DNA from: an uncultured Thermoproteales archaeon
Lineage (GTDB): Archaea; Thermoproteota; Thermoprotei; Thermofilales; B20-G17
NCBI GenBank assembly: GCA_964522205.1
Contig: CAZFTG010000001.1
Span: 49,854-113,853, forward strand
Direction: 5' to 3'
Length of the DNA stretch: 64,000 nucleotides
The notes beneath the pieces were generated by a model. The model worked only from the letters and a program-made list of their open reading frames with translations. It had not been told where the DNA came from and ran no database searches. Every line of letters starts with the position of its first letter. Position 1 is the first letter of the stretch. Position numbers and translations under genes: made by a program. This document shows positions 4,677-64,000 of this stretch, piece by piece.

Positions 4677-5064
4677 ATGAGAAGCACAGAGGTTGAAGAG
4701 ATGTTCAAAGACGCTGAGAGATTTTATGAGGAGGCGTTATAAAGGATTTAAAGGCTGGTAGAATTAGAAAGACTGCGAGAATGCATGGTGTGCAACCTTA
4801 AGAGCTACGGATGCATTAATTTTAGCTAGAACCGGCGAGAATCCTGTCAGGAGCGATATTACAACTAAAAGACTTCATGAACTACGCTCCAAGGATCTAA
4901 GTATAGAGATCCTGATTGGGAGGTATCATATTAGAGCAGTTTTCCTGCATGGATTATGTTTTTACATAAGCATATGTGAACTCTATGAGGAAATAAAAAG
5001 AAGAATAGTTGAAACAAAGCAGTATATAGAGGATGCCAAGAGGTTTGCTAGCCTTACTCGTTAA
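4677..5064 (+). pseudogene. PaREP1/HEPN-like family gene, disrupted by stop/frameshift
   Basis: My translation gives MRSTEVEEMFKDAERFYEEAL*, then, after a frame change, AWCATLRATDALILARTGENPVRSDITTKRLHELRSKDLSIEILIGRYHIRAVFLHGLCFY...EEIKRRIVETKQYIEDAKRFA*. The pattern (AE-x-F-x-EA ... AW-x-A ... LH-x-x-FY) fits the crenarchaeal PaREP1 family. The reading frame is broken near 4740-4790. Confidence 0.5.
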
Positions 5065-5548
5065 ATAAAGAGTTTAATAGTTGTACGAAGACCGTGAATA
5101 TTGATGAGGTTTAAAAAGTGTTAAGTCACTATCTTACTCCCCTAACGACCTTAAACCTCCTATCTTTGGTCGAGAAATTTCAAGGATCTCTGCTATTTTC
5201 AGACTTGCAGTACTAGTCTCAGCTCATACACTTAACCATGCCGCTTTCGCTTAATCAGTACAAATATTCTCTAGCCTCGAATACGCCTTCTCAACATTCC
5301 TATCTCTAACAAACTGCCTGTCCATCTCCTAGCTAATGCTATTCTGAAGATATAAATAAAAGAGATCCTAATTTCACTCCTTGGAAAGTACACCTAAAGG
5401 CAGGAGTAGGAGGAACTTAAGAGGTATTAACCACCATTCCCTCCATTTTAGCATACATGAACTTGAGCTTATGGAGTACCCGGAAAGAAAGCCTAGAGAA
5501 GAACCAAAATCATAAAGGGATATGAAAGTAAAAAGTAAACGCACCAAA

Positions 5549-5666
5549 TGGTGCGGGGGGTGGGATTTGAACCCACGCAGGCCTTCGCCACGGGAGCTCT
5601 CCTCCAGCTCTCCCATCGAGCAAGATCCTGAGTCCCGCCCCTTTGTCCTGGCTCGGGCACCCCCGC
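5549..5666 (-). tRNA. tRNA-Leu (CAG) with ~30-nt anticodon-loop intron, encoded CCA
   Basis: Reverse complement: GCGGGGGTGCCCGAGCCAGGACAAAGGGG CGGGA CTCAGG[~30 nt]TCCCG TGGCGAAGGCCTGC GTGGGTTCAAATCCCAC CCCCCGC ACCA. It has a long variable arm and anticodon loop CUCAGG, giving anticodon CAG. Confidence 0.9.
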
Positions 5667-5989: not shown

Positions 5990-7537
5990 ATGAGAAGAAT
6001 GAGACTGAAAGTGAAAAAACTAGATTTCTCCTCAGGTACACCCACTGTAGTTATTGATGACTCTGTAGCGCTTAGCCTAGGTGTCAGACCTCATGAGCGT
6101 GTGATCTTAAGGTACAATGGAAGAGAGTTAATAGCTCTAGTAAATGTAGGATGGCGTATACCGTACGATGTAGTACTAGTAAATAATGAGGTTATTGAGC
6201 TACTGAAAGTAAGAGAGGGAGAGGAGGTAGAGGTAAAACCATCTCCTCCACCAGAGTCCATAGAGTACATAAGGGATAGACTAAGAGGAGCAAGGTTAGG
6301 CTATAAGGAGATCAAGAGGATAGTAGAGGATATAGTACATAATAGACTCAGCGAGATAGAAATTGCCGCTCTAGTAACTACCATATACCAAACTGGAATG
6401 AGTACTGAGGAGGCATACTACTTTTCTCTTGCCATGGTAGAGACTGGAAATAGATTAGAATTGAATAGAACACCGATACTGGACAAGCATAGTATTGGAG
6501 GTGTTCCGGGAGATAAAACGACATTAATCCTAGTACCCATAATAGCCTCTCTTGGATATACTATACCTAAGACTAGTTCAAGAGCTATCACAAGTCCTGC
6601 GGGAACGGCTGATAGAGCTGAGGTTCTAATGCCAGTAAACTTATCACTAGAGGAGATGAAAGAAGTTGTCCAGAAGACAGGTGGATGTATCGTGTGGGGA
6701 GGGGCTCTCTATCTAGCCCCTGCTGATGATAAAATCATTAGGGTAGAATACCCACTATCAATAGACCCATTCCTAGTACCATCGATAATGGCTAAAAAGA
6801 AGGCTGTAGGATCTACACACTTAGTGATCGACATACCTGTAGGTAGAGGAGCAAAGATGAAGACGATAGGTGAAGCGCATTACTTGGCTAGGGAGATGAT
6901 TGAAGTGGGAAAAAGAATGGGAGTAACTGTAGCATGTGCACTAACTTTTGGCGAACAACCCATAGGCTACACTGCTGGACCAGCTCTAGAGGCTAGAGAG
7001 GCTCTACTCACTCTTATGGGTAAAGGTCCTGGAGATCTACTTGATAAGGCTACTAGTATAGCAGGACTGCTTCTAAGCTTGGTAGGTGTTGTAAAGGGTA
7101 AAGAAGTAGCTAAACATGCTGTATTAAAGGGTAAAGCTCTCACTAAGCTTAGAGAAATAATAGAAGCTCAAGGAGGAGATCCCAAAGTCTCCCCAGACGA
7201 CATCCCTATTGGAGATAAGAAGTTTACAATTCATGCGGAAAATAATGGAATAGTACTTTGGATAAATAACAAACTTATCGCTAATATAGCAAGACTTGCT
7301 GGTGCTCCAAAGGATAAGGGTGCAGGAGTACTATTACACGTGAAATTAGGAGATTACGTGAAGAAGGGAGACCCTCTTATCACAGTATTCTCCGAGTACT
7401 CAACTAAACTACAGACAGCAGAGAGAGTATTTGAAGAACAACCGGTTATAGGCGTGGGTAGACCTGAGGAGGAGATGCTAGTCGGTGTGATACCCGCTCC
7501 AAGACCCCATGAAAGGTTACCAATAATAGAAAGATGA
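5990..7537 (+). CDS. AMP phosphorylase (archaeal thymidine-phosphorylase family, DeoA-like)
   Basis: 515 aa. An ~80-aa N-terminal extra domain (MRLKVKKLDFSSGTPTVVI...) precedes a thymidine-phosphorylase-family core containing DKHSIGGVPGDKTTLILVPI. This size and architecture are typical of archaeal AMPpase. Confidence 0.85.
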   Translation: MRRMRLKVKKLDFSSGTPTVVIDDSVALSLGVRPHERVILRYNGRELIALVNVGWRIPYDVVLVNNEVIELLKVREGEEVEVKPSPPPESIEYIRDRLRGARLGYKEIKRIVEDIVHNRLSEIEIAALVTTIYQTGMSTEEAYYFSLAMVETGNRLELNRTPILDKHSIGGVPGDKTTLILVPIIASLGYTIPKTSSRAITSPAGTADRAEVLMPVNLSLEEMKEVVQKTGGCIVWGGALYLAPADDKIIRVEYPLSIDPFLVPSIMAKKKAVGSTHLVIDIPVGRGAKMKTIGEAHYLAREMIEVGKRMGVTVACALTFGEQPIGYTAGPALEAREALLTLMGKGPGDLLDKATSIAGLLLSLVGVVKGKEVAKHAVLKGKALTKLREIIEAQGGDPKVSPDDIPIGDKKFTIHAENNGIVLWINNKLIANIARLAGAPKDKGAGVLLHVKLGDYVKKGDPLITVFSEYSTKLQTAERVFEEQPVIGVGRPEEEMLVGVIPAPRPHERLPIIER

Positions 7538-39546: not shown

Positions 39547-39659
<113 letters not shown>

Positions 39660-39921
39660 ATTTTTAAAAGGAAATCTAGGCTTGAGAGGGGCCTATTATA
39701 CTTAACTTAATAATCCTACTTTTCTTAGGTATCAATGGATACTAGTGAATTTTTCAGTATTCTAGGATCATTTAATCTTATTTCTCTACTGAAAAATCAT
39801 ACTAATTAACGAAAAAGCTCATACTAAGGATATATGAAGAAAATACAATAGTAAATGTATAAATAATTTTATATATTTTTGCTGAAAGATTTTTTATGAC
39901 GAGAGTGAAATTTATACGTCA

Positions 39922-40530
39922 GTGGGGTCAAATGAGGTTAAGATAACGGTTGAGGAGAAAAAGTGCATAATTGCTACTGTGACTTTTGGATCTGAGCTCT
40001 CTCCTGAAGTCAACTTCTTAAGGTCTTTCAGGGATAACCTAATTCCTAAAACACATTCTGGTAGACAGTTCTACATAGCCGATGAATTTTACTACTCCTG
40101 GAGCACACCTGTGGCTAATCTCATAGCATCAAATCAAGTTCTGAAAACCCTAGTTAAGCTACTCATATACCCGCTACTGGGCATACTTAAATTGACCGCT
40201 ATGGCCACCACTGGCCTATTCCAGTTTAACTCCGAAGCAGCTGCTATACTTGCAGGATTTACAGCATCCTCACTTATAGGAGTGGTTTACATCTTACCGA
40301 TCCTACTGGTACTTTCGTTGATAGCTAGAAGAGTGGGCAGAAAACCCAATCCCTCCACTAGATGGATCAAAACTAGCTGGATAGTAGTCCTTATCTCTAT
40401 AGTATTCATAGTTCTCGGCTTGATGATTGGAAGCGATCCTCTGTTAACTGTTTCAACCTCAGTATATGTCTTAGCCAGCATAGCCTCCGCAACTATGTCC
40501 ACATTCAGTCTACTGGCTAGGAGACTCTGA
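39922..40530 (+). CDS. Membrane protein carrying a Cys-motif anchor module (C-IIATVTFGSELSPEVNFLRSFRDN + TM helices)
   Basis: 202 aa with a GTG start. The KCIIATVTFGSELSPEVNFLRSFRDNLI...YYSWSTPVANLIA motif is one I recall at the C-terminal ends of large archaeal surface proteins, whereas here it stands alone. Three to four TM helices follow. Confidence 0.5.
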   Translation: MGSNEVKITVEEKKCIIATVTFGSELSPEVNFLRSFRDNLIPKTHSGRQFYIADEFYYSWSTPVANLIASNQVLKTLVKLLIYPLLGILKLTAMATTGLFQFNSEAAAILAGFTASSLIGVVYILPILLVLSLIARRVGRKPNPSTRWIKTSWIVVLISIVFIVLGLMIGSDPLLTVSTSVYVLASIASATMSTFSLLARRL

Positions 40531-40747
40531 AGACAGGACAACACCCATAGTCCTAAGCCTTATATGTTTTCTTTACTCATATAAGTTATTTGAAATTATC
40601 TTTAGTGATATTCTAGAATGAATTCTTTATGGATAAGAAATTCTTTCGAACATTATTTAGCTTTATAGATGCGATAAAAAATGCTCAGACGAATTACTTC
40701 AGAAGTTTGAAGTTGATGGAGAGGTTATAGTAGTCTATAGGAGATGA

Positions 40748-40822
40748 CGGGCCCGGGGGGATTCGAACCCCCGACCTGCGGCTTAGGAGGCCGCCGCGCT
40801 ATCCTGGCTACGCTACGGGCCC
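40748..40822 (-). tRNA. tRNA-Arg (CCU)
   Basis: Reverse complement: GGGCCCG TA GCGT AGCCAGGATAGCGC G GCGGC CTCCTAA GCCGC AGGTC GGGGG TTCGAAT CCCCC CGGGCCC G. No encoded CCA. Confidence 0.93.
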
Positions 40823-40901
40823 ACTTATATGCTATTCCTATAGTAATATAGCAACTTAGCCTAGTATAAATTGCACTCTATAATTAAAAATCTAGCCTTG
40901 G

Positions 40902-41053
40902 AAAAGTGGAGCCTCCCTTTAAGGCGAGAGTGAACTGTTGTCTTAGCGAAGGTCATAGGATTTCTGCCCTCGCTGTAAAAAACCCTGGATAGCATTTTTA
41001 TTTCTGTGACCGTCGGTGAGCCTTAATGAGTTTTCGGTCTCCTCGGGAGGTCC
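40902..41053 (-). ncRNA. Unclassified structured RNA candidate, copy A (paralog of 63775..63926)
   Basis: The closing helix pairs 41045-41053 with 40908-40917. An inner helix pairs 40924-40930 with 40967-40973. On the minus strand it is preceded by CGTAAAGTTTATAAG, with the first T of the TATA exactly 30 nt upstream of the helix start, and is followed by UUUUCC. Strand was assigned from the promoter, the terminator and a G.U pair that would be A.C on the plus strand. Confidence 0.5.
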
Positions 41054-41075
41054 GATTATTATAGTGAATTAACCC

Positions 41076-41090
41076 CTTATAAACTTTACG
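41076..41090 (-). promoter_or_regulatory. BRE/TATA-like promoter of RNA candidate copy A
   Basis: Minus strand reads CGTAAAG TTTATAAG. The same 13-nt core and the same 30-nt spacing to the transcript's first helix are conserved at copy B (63949-63963), while the sequence in between differs. Confidence 0.5.
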
Positions 41091-41194
41091 TTGGTTTTGC
41101 TTCTAGAACATCTACTGATGGATTACGACAATTCAGATAAAAAATACTGTTTCATCGATTTTAGAAAAGGTTTCACTCCTGATACCTATTAAAG

Positions 41195-41839
41195 TTAGAG
41201 CCTCTGGGATACTGTAATAAGGACTTTATCATCTTCCTTTTCTATATCAGACACCTGTATGTTCTTGATATACGAGATATCTACTCTATCTATCCTTCCA
41301 AAACCTGATGACATTCTCGCATAGAGGTTCTTCACTAATCTAACAAAATATGACTCATCAGCTATATCAGAACATAGAATCACAAAATCTCTCTCGCAAA
41401 CGCAATAATTTACGTATAGGAGAAGTCCACATATACTTACATGAAAATTACCTATCTCCTTTCTTAGATCCTCGGATAATTGACTAAGGACCAGTGATCG
41501 AAGTTCTACTATAGCCTTAAGAGCAAGCTTCTCAACATCCTGTAGGGAGAGAGGGATACTGGATTTCCTGATCTCAGGAACTCGCTCTATGATATCGATT
41601 AAGACCCCTCTTATCATGCAGTCACCAAATGCTCGATAGACCCCATTAAGAGTATGCCTCACTAATGATCTATTTGCAGGAGTGTATATGTGAACCTCAG
41701 GTTGGAAAATAGGCTCCTCAAGATCCTTCAGAGCGATAGTAATCTCCAGGTTCTTACCGCGGTATTTCACAGTAGAGATCTCTTGTAGTATACTCTCCTC
41801 CAGCTCCTTCCATACTGGAAGCGCATGTTCATCAATCAT
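41195..41839 (-). CDS. Hypothetical protein
   Basis: 214-aa ORF with no recognisable motif. Its start is overlapped (ATGA) by a 31-codon upstream ORF ending FYEKIGFISYKK, which looks like a GNAT C-terminal remnant. Confidence 0.45.
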   Translation of the reverse strand: MIDEHALPVWKELEESILQEISTVKYRGKNLEITIALKDLEEPIFQPEVHIYTPANRSLVRHTLNGVYRAFGDCMIRGVLIDIIERVPEIRKSSIPLSLQDVEKLALKAIVELRSLVLSQLSEDLRKEIGNFHVSICGLLLYVNYCVCERDFVILCSDIADESYFVRLVKNLYARMSSGFGRIDRVDISYIKNIQVSDIEKEDDKVLITVSQRL

Positions 41840-42281: not shown

Positions 42282-42383
42282 TAGCCCCGCCGGGATTCGA
42301 ACCCGGGATCTGGGGGTTTCCTCCCCCTAGGGCACCCCTAGGAGTCCAAAGCCCCCCATGCTTGACCGCTACACCACGGGGCT
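42282..42383 (-). tRNA. tRNA-Gln (UUG) with ~28-nt anticodon-loop intron
   Basis: Reverse complement: AGCCCCG TG GTGT AGCGGTCAAGCAT G GGGGG CTTTGG[~28 nt]A CCCCC AGATC CCGGG TTCGAAT CCCGG CGGGGCT A. The A1:U72 pair is typical of archaeal tRNA-Gln. Confidence 0.9.
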
Positions 42384-46589: not shown

Positions 46590-46906
46590 TAGATCACACC
46601 TACTCTGACCTACTGTTAGTGCAAGTATAAGTTATATCTATTGTTAAGACTGATTGAATGCCGATCACTAGGCACTTATTTCATTCTAGAGCCTCTACTG
46701 TTGTTTCTATGCTATGATAGATACCTATTAAGTATTGAAATGGACAACTAATTAGCTCTTTTAGAAAGATGTGTCTGTGGAAACTGCTCTGAGAAAACCG
46801 AAGGTAGAACTGGAGTATAGCGGAAAGTTTATAGCATGTAGTAAACATCTACTTATTAAGAGCATAGAGGAAAATCTATATTAGGAGTATATATTTAGGA
46901 TAAAAC

Positions 46907-46998
46907 GCCCCGGTGGTGTAGCCCGGCAAGCATAGGCCTGTGTGGGGTGCAACGGCCTCTCGAGCCGCAGATCCCGGGTTCAAATCCCGGCCGGGGCA
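46907..46998 (+). tRNA. tRNA-Glu (CUC) with ~17-nt intron at a non-canonical position (5' side of the anticodon stem)
   Basis: GCCCCGG TG GTGT AGCCCGGCAAGCAT A G[GCCTGTGTGGGGTGCAA]CGGC CTCTCGA GCCGC AGATC CCGGG TTCAAAT CCCGG CCGGGGC A. Removing ~17 nt restores a 5-bp anticodon stem (GCGGC/GCCGC). The exact exon borders are ambiguous by 1-2 nt. Confidence 0.85.
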
Positions 46999-47093
46999 CT
47001 ACTTCCTATGGTGTTCTACTCTATAGATTGATAAATTACTCTAGTAAACTATTAAATTGATTATTCTTAGTACAAGGTTTATACATTCATTCG

Positions 47094-58932: not shown

Positions 58933-59059
58933 TGGTCCCCCGGGCCGGATTTGAACCGGCGACCATCCGGTTTCGGCTGACCTCCATTCATGCTAGGGCC
59001 TGTGCCCCCTCATGGAGGCCTCTACAGCCGGACGCTCTTCCAGGCTGAGCTACCGGGGG
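58933..59059 (-). tRNA. tRNA-Tyr (GUA) with ~50-nt anticodon-loop intron, encoded CCA
   Basis: Reverse complement: CCCCCGG TA GCTC AGCCTGGAAGAGC G TCCGG CTGTAG[50 nt]A CCGGA TGGTC GCCGG TTCAAAT CCGGC CCGGGGG A CCA. The C1:G72 pair is the archaeal Tyr identity pair. Confidence 0.88.
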
Positions 59060-62385: not shown

Positions 62386-62732
62386 GGGGCCCGGGGAAAA
62401 GCCCTGGGGGGCTACCCCTCCCCTACCTCGGTACATACCGAGGTCCGTAAACGGGGGATATGACGGGGGGCGTTAACCCCACATCAAGGCTCTCCTCTTC
62501 ACCGAGCAGGTGGAGGGCCTCTGTGAGGGTGAACCTCGGTCCCACGGGGTTCCGGAGGCAGGGATGCCACTCGTAGGAGTGGCTAAACTGCCTTGCCGTC
62601 CGAACCGGGTTAGGCCCGGGAGGGAGCGGCCCTAAGGACGGACGGGACGTTCGTGGGAGTGCCGAGGATGACTCACATGCTCTCCCCCTCTCGGTGAATG
62701 AGAGTCGAGATGTGGGGGATGCCCGGGCCCCC
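62386..62732 (+). ncRNA. Signal recognition particle (7S/SRP) RNA
   Basis: A ~350-nt GC-rich island whose 5' GGGGCCCGGGG pairs with the 3' CCCGGGCCCC. It contains GUUAGGCCCGGGAGGGAGCGGCCCUAAGGACGGACGGGACG, which aligns with the universally conserved helix-8 core (GUCAGGUCCGGAAGGAAGCAGCCAAGGCAGAUGACG of E. coli 4.5S). The ends are +/-10 nt. Confidence 0.85.
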
Positions 62733-62773: not shown

Positions 62774-63595
62774 ATGGATAGGAAGACTCGTATACCCCTA
62801 TTATATGGACATCCCTCTCATAAGAGTATAATAGAGCCTATCGATTGGCTAGAGCATGTGTGTAGTATCAGAAAGATCGCTCTTCCCAGGCTACCTAAAT
62901 ACTGTATTTTATCATTTAAGTATACTAGGGCTATGGAATACCTCGAGGAGTACGAACCAAGTATTGTAGAGCCTTTCACCGATGACTATGAAGTATGTAC
63001 CTTCGACTATGAGGGAGTTCCTATGTGTTTTGCATATTTGGGTGTAGGTACTCCATTAGCAGGAGCTAGATTTGAGGAAGTAATAGCTCTTGGAGTAGAG
63101 TATGCTATTCTTATAGGAGGTGTAGGCTCTCTTAAACCCGAAATTGAACAATGGAGATTGATAGTTCCTGTGAGGGCTATAAGGGACGAAGGCACCTCAT
63201 ATCACTATGCTATTCCCTCTACCTACTCCTATCCTAGCTCTCTAATGCTTAAGGTGATCGAAGATACACTCAAAGAGGAGGGGGTCGAGTATCTCAAAGG
63301 AACTGTGTGGACTACAGACGCTCCTTATAGGGAGACTATTGAGAAACGTAGGGAGTCCATGAGGCTGGGGGCTATATGTGTTGATATGGAGGCTTCAGCT
63401 CTCTTCGCAATAGCCAATTTCAGAGGAGTTCATCTAGGGGCAATATTCTATGCTTCAGATCTAGTGAGTGAGGAGGGATGGAGTGCTAGAGTATACCCTG
63501 ATCATAAGACTAGGTTTGAGGACACTATTAAAAAGCTATTAAGGTGCTCGATGAGTATACTTCATCGAGTACATCAGAAGAGATCGTACTCTTGA
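62774..63595 (+). CDS. Nucleoside phosphorylase, PNP/UDP family 1 (uridine-phosphorylase-like)
   Basis: 273 aa. GVGTPLAGARFEEVIALGVEYAILIGGVGSL ... IRDEGTSYHY ... VWTTDAPYRET ... CVDMEASALFAIA follows the PNP_UDP_1 pattern. Confidence 0.7.
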   Translation: MDRKTRIPLLYGHPSHKSIIEPIDWLEHVCSIRKIALPRLPKYCILSFKYTRAMEYLEEYEPSIVEPFTDDYEVCTFDYEGVPMCFAYLGVGTPLAGARFEEVIALGVEYAILIGGVGSLKPEIEQWRLIVPVRAIRDEGTSYHYAIPSTYSYPSSLMLKVIEDTLKEEGVEYLKGTVWTTDAPYRETIEKRRESMRLGAICVDMEASALFAIANFRGVHLGAIFYASDLVSEEGWSARVYPDHKTRFEDTIKKLLRCSMSILHRVHQKRSYS

Positions 63596-63774
63596 TTTAA
63601 CAATGAGGGGGAATGGAGATGATGCCTCATGAGATCAACTTCAAGATACATCAGAGGAACATCGAATAGTCGATAAAAGTACTCTACTAAGTATCTTAAG
63701 GTTGTACACGGGACATTAATACTCTAAACAGCAGTCTTACTAGTTAGTATAATTGCATCCAGTTCTAGGGTTGG

Positions 63775-63926
63775 AAAATGGAGCTCCCCTTTGAGGCAAG
63801 GGTATTCATGTCCTCAGTTGAACTCATGAAATCGTCGTCCCTTGCTGTAAAAAATACTGTTATAGCGCTTACACGTCAATGATTATCAGTGGGTCTTGGT
63901 GAGCTTTAGTCTCCTCGGGGAGCTCC
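63775..63926 (-). ncRNA. Unclassified structured RNA candidate, copy B (paralog of 40902..41053)
   Basis: A perfect 10-bp closing helix pairs 63917-63926 (GGGGAGCTCC) with 63780-63789 (GGAGCTCCCC). An inner 7-bp helix pairs 63796-63802 with 63839-63845. On the minus strand CGTAAAGTTTATATA lies at 63949-63963, with the first TATA T 30 nt before the helix start. It is followed by UUUUCC (63771-63778). Confidence 0.5.
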
Positions 63927-63948
63927 AATTTAATTATAGAATCTCTTA

Positions 63949-63963
63949 TATATAAACTTTACG
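63949..63963 (-). promoter_or_regulatory. BRE/TATA-like promoter of RNA candidate copy B
   Basis: Minus strand reads CGTAAAG TTTATATA. The sequence and spacing are conserved with 41076-41090. Confidence 0.5.
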
Positions 63964-64000
63964 TTGGGATTTCATTAGGACTAGTAGAAACTCTTAAGTC

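Follow-up and report, generated by a model that had tools for sequence, protein, structure and literature searches.

A duplicated candidate small RNA gene in an uncultured Thermoproteales archaeon

The subject of this analysis is a small duplicated element in a 64,000-nucleotide (nt) stretch of DNA (the window) from an uncultured Thermoproteales archaeon (contig CAZFTG010000001.1). One copy, copy B, lies close to the right-hand end of the window, between a nucleoside phosphorylase gene and a gene that begins beyond position 64000. The other, copy A, is located on the minus strand between an orphan open reading frame (ORF) of 214 amino acids (aa) and a tRNA-Arg gene, which lies 79 nt farther down that strand. 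The sequence past 64000 is given by a metagenome contig (L001) that matches the window exactly. Here, the next gene encodes a V4R/ACT-domain protein on the plus strand, starting at window-equivalent position 64113 (186 nt beyond copy B) and carrying its own TATA box, TTTAAATA, and a GGTGA Shine-Dalgarno sequence (ribosome-binding site).

The sequence-only reading of this DNA held that the element is not a tRNA leader and proposed to look past the window end for a gene to which it might be the leader. The first view was borne out, as next to copy B there is neither a tRNA nor an Rfam match; and because the V4R gene has its own signals, the element is not its leader either. A cis-regulatory leader can be rejected for both copies, since there is no plus-strand gene after copy A and the minus strand of copy B faces a convergent gene. 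Read on the minus strand, each copy stands as a unit of its own. The statement that copy A lies upstream of tRNA-Arg on the same strand is true of the minus strand, but of no other. The features of the two loci are as follows, those of the RNA being given as predicted on the minus strand.

63951-63967, minus strand: promoter block CCAACGTAAAG-TTTATA, consisting of CGTAAAG, which resembles a B recognition element (BRE), and a TATA box
63917-63926, minus strand: 5' strand of terminal helix P1, GGAGCUCCCC, in perfect pairing with 63780-63789
63913-63916, minus strand: 5' strand of helix P2, GAGG, within the invariant 8-mer GAGGAGAC, pairing with CCUC at 63793-63796
63846-63912, minus strand: J region of ~68 nt, A/C-rich and weakly structured, with tandem ~10-nt RA..YCAYY units and a run of six Ts (T6)
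63849-63854, minus strand: the internal T6, within the 11-mer TTTTTTACAGC, invariant in both paralogues and all 5 sequence variants
63796-63845, minus strand: P3 hairpin, stem GCAAGGG/CCCUUGC (6-7 bp shared by the copies) and a 36-nt apical region
63790-63792, minus strand: AAA bulge or internal loop between P1 and P2, invariant in all sequences
63780-63789, minus strand: 3' strand of P1, GGGGAGCUCC, read from the sequence and from the pairing test
63775-63779, minus strand: 3' tail AUUUU (a run of four Ts, T4), read from the sequence; ACUUUU in copy A
63745-63757, strand unspecified: TAGTATAATTGCA block, homologous to 40862-40877
40902-41094, minus strand: copy A with its promoter (RNA from 41053 to 40902, T6 at 40977-40982, promoter block at 41078-41094)
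41195-41839, minus strand: 214-aa ORF, directly upstream of copy A
62774-63595: nucleoside phosphorylase gene, its 3' end facing the copy B minus strand (convergent)
62389-62728, plus strand: archaeal signal recognition particle (SRP, 7S) RNA gene (114.6 bits, 65% G+C), ~1 kb from copy B

The two helices originally described for copy B can both be read from the sequence: a perfect 10-bp terminal helix (63780-63789, GGAGCTCCCC, with 63917-63926, GGGGAGCTCC) and a 7-bp inner helix (63796-63802, GCAAGGG, with 63839-63845, CCCTTGC). A further 6-bp hairpin (63805-63810, TTCATG, with 63825-63830, CATGAA) is indeed present in copy B and absent from copy A, but it is not conserved, and a U-to-C change weakens it in the nearest strain (L003). 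The folding energy of copy B is -48.0 kcal/mol for the minus strand (z -4.85) and -53.5 kcal/mol for the plus strand (z -4.57), and on either strand none of 200 dinucleotide shuffles folds as well. The folding of copy A is weaker (z -2.4 on the minus and -2.0 on the plus strand). Copy B is a real, non-random, duplicated element.

The proposal that a module of ~235 bp was duplicated and diverged to about two-thirds identity, with the terminal and inner helices still pairable, is confirmed. Copies A and B are 64-69% identical (blastn gives 69% over 213 nt, E 1e-9), and a covariance model built from copy B alone matches copy A with 67.5 bits (E 4e-14). Homology of the module runs 25-45 nt past both terminal repeats, and CTGTAAAAAA is confined to the two copies in the window (0.12 occurrences expected). 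These comparisons identify copy A as a genuine paralogue of copy B. According to a two-paralogue covariance model run with filters off, the window holds exactly two copies; a possible third at 4997-5134 (13 bits, E 0.22) was without the terminal helix on inspection and was dismissed as a chance match. The element is thus not a dispersed repeat, and metagenomes give orthologous loci only.

Pairing was tested on 5 distinct sequences from one species-level clade, representing two independent lineages (A-type and B-type). Counted from the first G up to the U-run, each RNA would have a length of exactly 152 nt, and the model aligns the two almost without gaps. In P1, P2 and P3, 20 of 20 pairs hold in all five sequences, compared with 41-59% in controls whose 3' partners were slid 1-3 columns out of register; three pairs are changed on both sides and two are switched between G-C and G-U. 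P1 is kept in copy A through an indel-shifted C-G/U-A swap. The CCUC partner of P2 reads CCUU in copy A, which gives a G-U pair that is possible on the minus strand only. In the P3 stem of copy A there is one compensatory change from A-U to G-C and one change from G-C to G-U. The 41-nt spacing across P3, the 4-bp P2 and the AAA bulge are exactly preserved between copies, and all 9 strain-level substitutions lie outside P1-P3.

Compared between the two paralogues, the helices are 77.5% identical, J 67% (ungapped alignment) and the P3 apical region 40%, and the 5' part is better conserved than the 3' part (~70% vs ~57%). The minus-strand consensus fold scores z -3.3 at 37 C and -4.3 at 65 C against column shuffles, and its structure is unchanged at 37, 60, 65 and 75 C; the corresponding plus-strand values are -2.8 at 37 C and -2.7 at 65 C. 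In the RNAalifold consensus AAA stands opposite GAG, the alternative reading being an AAA bulge with a 4-bp P2 (GAGG/CCUY). RNAalifold also adds a possible helix between an A-tract and the U-tract, which would give a three-way junction.

Archaeal promoters combine a purine-rich BRE with a TATA box centred near -26. The sequence CGTAAAG-TTTATA upstream of copy B reads as a textbook archaeal BRE/TATA. The 17-mer promoter block, CCAACGTAAAGTTTATA, is identical in both copies and occurs in these two places only, whereas the transcribed part has diverged by ~36%. From the start of the TATA box to the first G of P1 there are 30 nt in both copies, so that the predicted transcription start, G63926, is the first base of the terminal helix and lies ~26 nt past the TATA-box centre. 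Between strains, conservation of the promoter block is 100% at copy A and 95% at copy B. The promoter of the SRP RNA gene, CGAAAGG-TTAAAGTA, resembles that of the candidate RNA, and the promoter core AAAGTTTATA is also found upstream of tRNA-His. This last occurrence, at 46824-46833 on the plus strand, is the sole other exact AAAGTTTATA in the window; it lies ~80 nt upstream of the tRNA and would imply a leader of ~50 nt or an unannotated short transcript there.

A T4 run directly follows P1 in both window copies. Because of the conserved promoter, its exact spacing and this T-run, a functional RNA is probably encoded on the minus strand, and not on the plus strand on which the sequence-only reading had drawn the helices. 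Moreover, two G-U pairs of copy A would become A-C mismatches on the plus strand. Thermodynamics or covariation alone points to neither strand.

The invariant T6 lies at +73 to +78 from the predicted start. In the 44 ORFs of the window, T-runs are strongly avoided on the sense strand (T6 occurs 2 times and A6 24 times; T5 18 and A5 86 times), which is consistent with oligo-T being an efficient terminator in this organism. Intergenic T6 runs are located just downstream of tRNA-Arg, of the tRNA gene at 42282-42383 and of the 214-aa ORF. Since sense-strand T6 is avoided in coding sequence and placed after genes, the T6 of the candidate RNA should terminate transcription.

Homologues were sought well beyond the window. 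Viral, phage and plasmid collections gave no match to the element, and a scan for its exact three-block pattern in one genome per species (185,579 species) gave only a chance match in Bacteroidales. A metagenome scan yielded 6 true loci and 15 chance matches; each of the true loci is 96% or more identical to one of the two window copies, and two of the six are found on one 90-kb contig in the same relative arrangement as the window copies. At the loci of relatives whose nucleoside phosphorylase and DUF763 proteins are 81-55% identical, the RNA was not found by blastn, nhmmer or the covariance model with filters off. The family appears, so far, to be confined to one species-level clade.

On balance, copies A and B are best explained as a pair of paralogous small non-coding RNA genes, each standing alone on the minus strand, an explanation that we consider somewhat better than even. 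It draws on the duplication, the conserved helices, the geometry of promoter and T-runs, and the lack of both a coding signal and a match to a known family; strand, transcript ends and function we infer. Archaeal RNA polymerase would start at G63926 from the BRE/TATA at 63951-63967. The first ~78 nt would be A/C-rich and nearly unstructured, containing the invariant GAGGAGAC and tandem RCYCAYY motifs and ending in U6. Read-through past U6 would add P3 and a 3' segment that folds back on the 5' end (P1, AAA bulge, P2), so that the complete molecule, 147-152 nt long with a short U-run at its end, would be closed and heat-stable.

The most likely role for such a molecule would be that of a trans-acting regulatory or protein-bound RNA. 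Its single-stranded J region and U-tract might form the working surface, either by base pairing (e.g., with GGUGA-type ribosome-binding sites) or by binding of an Sm-like or other protein, and the P1 clamp might control stability at high temperature or the availability of the 5' region. J contains two to three tandem RA..YCAYY units, including CUCACC. The complement, GGUGAG, resembles the AGGUG(A)-type ribosome-binding sites found before about 7-9 of the 44 window ORFs, and U6 resembles an Sm site. Complements of 11 nt to the candidate RNA occur within the window at chance level.

Several observations weigh against this explanation. The homologues come from a single species-level clade, and the covariation reflects one divergence between the A and B lineages only. 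Structured RNAs are not usually as rich in A+C as the minus strand (81-85 of 147 nt), and at 48% the G+C content of the candidate is far below the 63-75% of the tRNAs and SRP RNA of the window. The P1-P2-P3 fold of copy A lies 8 kcal/mol above the minimum-energy fold, which does not include the inner helix. The T4 tail is mutated in sister strains (UUCUC), and between strains the RNA body is 97% conserved compared with 91-97% for the flanks, a modest gain. Finally, the invariant T6 should end transcription ~78 nt from the predicted start, and these first 78 nt show no conserved fold by themselves (z +1.0).

The original description of copy B as a structured RNA candidate stands in that its helices are real, but the T6 calls into question whether a full-length folded RNA is the main product. 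It is possible that the main product is an RNA of ~78 nt and that P1 and P3 form in read-through transcripts only. Another possible option is that U6 is needed inside the 147-152-nt RNA, as the pairing partner of the A-tract or as a protein-binding site.

The strongest rival, though an unlikely one, is a functional RNA on the plus strand, G+U-rich and with the same terminal helix but a different interior, consisting of a hairpin at 63791-63818 and pairings of 63819-63831 with 63894-63909 and of 63841-63847 with 63887-63893. This strand is 56-58% G+U and has the lower single-sequence folding energies. RNAalifold finds 45 pairs on it, including 7 in which both sides have changed, and gives a covariation term of -3.5 here and of -0.8 for the minus strand. 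Two helices, one of 12 bp (S3) and one of 7 bp (S4), are kept in 5 of 5 sequences and count further against the minus strand, on which their G-U pairs would be mismatches; three strain-level substitutions keep or improve the pairing. The A6 that this strand carries would be harmless, unlike the terminator-type T6 of the minus strand, and in both copies TATA-like sequences lie ~27 nt upstream of the helix. However, these elements are non-homologous between the copies (there is a 9-nt indel) and have no purine-rich BRE, there is no T-run after the helix, and copy A has a T5 on the plus strand. The S-helices cost 19 kcal/mol (copy B) and 8 kcal/mol (copy A) relative to the minimum-energy fold and have hardly any stability left at 70 C, and the predicted structure shifts with alignment and temperature. 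A plus-strand RNA also leaves the conserved, exactly spaced minus-strand promoter unexplained.

It is also unlikely, and slightly more so, that no fold has been selected at all. The element would then be a duplication relic, made up of a strong promoter, a short spacer or unstructured RNA that runs to T6, and a tRNA-Arg promoter, with the inverted repeat either incidental or acting at the DNA level. A promoter and a T6 that are 78 nt apart do amount to a complete minimal archaeal transcription unit. The better conservation of the 5' part, the modest excess of conservation over the flanks and the restriction of homologues to one clade would all be expected of a relic, and the downstream block resembles a copied tRNA promoter. 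On the other hand, it is very unlikely that all 20 pairs would be kept at ~36% divergence, with compensatory and wobble changes, if there were no selection for pairing. The slid controls (41-59% paired) and the column shuffles (z -3.3 to -4.3) argue in the same direction, as does the exact preservation of the 152-nt length, the 4-bp P2, the AAA bulge and the 41-nt P3 spacing.

The history of the downstream block can be followed in part. The TAGTATAATTGCA block is probably what remains of the tRNA-Arg promoter that was copied along with copy A; a similar sequence, AGAGTGAAATTTATAC, sits before ORF 39922, and the region of the block is poorly conserved between strains (92%). A near-identical promoter-like 16-mer, AGAGTG[A/C]AATTTATAC, is found at 39899-39914 (plus strand) before ORF 39922-40530 and at 40862-40877 (minus strand) before tRNA-Arg. 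Because a weaker copy of this 16-mer, GCAATTATAC, lies downstream of copy B with no gene after it, the arrangement suggests that copy B arose through duplication of the copy A locus. In addition, an identical 14-mer, AACAGTATTTTTTA (minus strand), occurs inside copy B at 63848-63861 and at 41138-41151, in the terminator region of the 214-aa gene, which may be due to chance (E 0.16) or may be a trace of the duplication history.

More doubtful again than a relic is the idea that the two copies represent a new structured archaeal RNA family. Its long terminal clamp, with the invariant AAA bulge and the 4-bp helix (a relaxed bulge-helix-loop), would mark the RNA for cutting and circularisation by the tRNA-splicing machinery or would serve as a dedicated platform for protein binding; here the invariant internal U6 would be a programmed, leaky terminator that switches between a short linear RNA and the closed, stable form.

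A small protein is very improbable. It would be encoded by a leaderless plus-strand ORF at 63778-63882 in copy B (34 aa, MELPFEARV...), with a counterpart of 28 aa in copy A. The frame is open in both copies, N- and C-terminal residues are in common, there are 6 synonymous codon differences, and a TATA-like element lies ~27 nt before the start codon. Against these 6 there are 15 non-synonymous differences, and other frames reach 4-5 synonymous ones. Differences are spread over the codon positions as 11, 11 and 16, with no third-position bias, and in the central ten codons the two copies bear no relation to each other. Each of the 3 strain-level changes in the copy B ORF is non-synonymous, copy A would require a leaderless GTG start, and neither peptide is present among ~15 billion predicted proteins. 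Neither strand showed a coding signature in its small ORFs.

If the terminal helix is taken as a pair of terminal inverted repeats, the element might be a mobile repeat such as a miniature inverted-repeat transposable element. This would suit the 147-bp length, the 10-bp repeats, the AT-richer interior and the presence of two copies, but is close to refuted by the finding of only two copies in 64 kb with filters off, by their identity of 64-69% (not near-identical), by homology that continues 25-45 nt beyond both repeats, by the lack of a target-site duplication at copy A, by the orthologous positions in sister strains with both copies on one 90-kb contig, and by the lack of matches in viral, phage and plasmid collections.

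The genomic setting of the two copies is that of a thermophile. The window as a whole has a G+C content of 39%, its tRNAs and SRP RNA 63-75%, and this gap is a thermophile signature. Ten tRNA genes are found in the window by Rfam and five by ARAGORN. Several are 100-124 nt long, evidently with one or more introns, and the 3' CCA is gene-encoded in most. The tRNA loci noted in the comparison of Rfam with ARAGORN are:

58936-59059, minus strand: tRNA gene
42282-42383, minus strand: tRNA gene
39547-39656, plus strand: tRNA gene
5552-5666, minus strand: tRNA gene
46907-46999, plus strand: tRNA gene

The window is a piece of archaeal chromosome and also encodes an AMP phosphorylase. Exact matches to window proteins were found in metagenome assemblies only. 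The closest relatives of the neighbouring DUF763 protein are 99% and 81% identical to it, and the next do not exceed 56%; its best named matches are from Bathyarchaeia, Thermofilum and Thermoproteales genome bins. The 214-aa ORF upstream of copy A has no Pfam match and is represented by two clusters (94-95% identical) among 5.8 billion proteins, a distribution as narrow as that of the candidate RNA. The segment 63644-63694 (minus strand), located between the phosphorylase gene and copy B, gives a weak C/D-box-like Rfam match (SNORD77, E 5.4). Inspection shows no convincing C and D boxes in it, and it is the least conserved region between strains (92%). In a genus-level relative (L004), the intergenic region between the V4R and phosphorylase genes (7110-7150) contains the C-box-like sequence GTATGATGAGGTGATG, which has no homology to the candidate RNA.

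To our knowledge, almost no regulatory RNAs are known from this barely studied thermophilic archaeal lineage. If transcribed as predicted, the element would add to this uncultured lineage an unclassified small RNA with two paralogues. Its design is unusual in combining a strong promoter of the stable-RNA type with an invariant, terminator-like U6 inside the RNA and with a 3' extension by which the 5' end is clamped; if true, it would offer a simple, testable archaeal case of folding that depends on transcript length. Should it prove to be no more than a duplication relic, it would matter little. Seen in one clade and two lineages, the element is a candidate, not a discovery.

Compared with known RNAs, the candidate stands apart from all curated families. 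At the gathering threshold, Rfam 15 finds only SRP RNA and tRNAs in the whole window, and permissive Rfam scans of 63600-64000 and 40700-41200 give only matches with E values of 3.4-9.2 and scores far below threshold. A tRNA is recognised by its cloverleaf, T-arm (GTTCRANYC) and D-arm. A tRNA or tRNA-like RNA (leader, permuted or split) was rejected, since ARAGORN and the Rfam tRNA model are negative in both copies, and no conserved T-loop common to both was found. By inspection, none of the known motifs considered (RNase P, H/ACA, C/D, kink-turn (K-turn), hammerhead, 5S) fits.

H/ACA and C/D guide RNAs are similar to the candidate in size range, in being stand-alone genes with their own promoters and in having hairpins with internal loops. 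H/ACA RNAs are recognised by an ACA box that follows the lower stem on its 3' side, by a pocket for pseudouridylation, and by an upper stem that contains a K-turn or K-loop. In the candidate, the stem is followed by A(C)UUUU and not by ACA (the sequence reads CCA(C)UUUU), the loops of 68 nt vs 0-3 nt are far too asymmetric for a pocket, and the AUGA...CURA segment of P3 forms no K-turn with a supporting stem in both copies. C/D RNAs carry boxes C (RUGAUGA) and D (CUGA) near their ends, forming a K-turn; no such pair is conserved in both copies, and Rfam C/D models give E 5-9.

The type T RNase P RNA of Thermoproteaceae, from a related archaeal phylum, is likewise shorter than 200 nt and has a terminal P1 and GAGGA... 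after the 5' helices. RNase P RNAs of types A, M and T share conserved regions (CR-I and CR-V) whose consensus sequences form P4. In the candidate both the consensus and the P4 pairing are absent, there is no model match at E<=10, and on inspection the segment after ACAG pairs locally (P3) and not with the 5' GAGGAGAC segment. It differs from type T further in helix order, in its two diverged copies and in its low G+C content.

The bulge-helix-bulge (BHB) motif has two 3-nt bulges on opposite strands, exactly 4 bp apart, with flanking helices. It is cut by the archaeal splicing endonuclease in tRNA and rRNA introns, in the permuted tRNAs of Thermofilum and in the circularised SRP RNA of Thermoproteus. 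The end-to-end helix of the candidate, its invariant 3-nt AAA bulge and the 4-bp GAGG/CCUY helix, which has the endonuclease spacing, recall such RNAs, and the host genome is rich in tRNA introns. However, the second bulge is replaced by a loop of ~68 nt, so that a full BHB is rejected in favour of, at best, a relaxed bulge-helix-loop, and there is no tRNA, rRNA or SRP content inside.

Sm-class and Y-type RNAs resemble the candidate in their bulged end-to-end stem, in an internal single-stranded U6 similar to an Sm site (consensus AAUUUUUGG, PMC5587771) and in a 3' U-run. The resemblance is no more than an analogy: the sequences are not homologous, neither copy has a linked SmAP or Ro gene, and the candidate RNA lacks the SmAP2 motif GGAUGGAUAUUAGGAAAUG given in the literature.

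The generic marks of a stand-alone archaeal small RNA (sRNA) gene are all present in the candidate, namely the promoter geometry, the T6 and T4 runs and the non-coding character, its transcription being predicted only. Archaeal trans-acting sRNAs (Sulfolobus, Haloferax, Methanosarcina, Pyrobaculum) are also intergenic, have their own BRE/TATA and an oligo-T end, measure 80-150 nt, are without coding signal and have a narrow phylogenetic range. The candidate differs from them in matching no curated family, in having two paralogues that are 64% identical and in placing a terminal clamp around an internal T6. What is new here is thus best read as an unclassified, lineage-restricted orphan RNA family within a known general kind, that of stand-alone sRNA genes.

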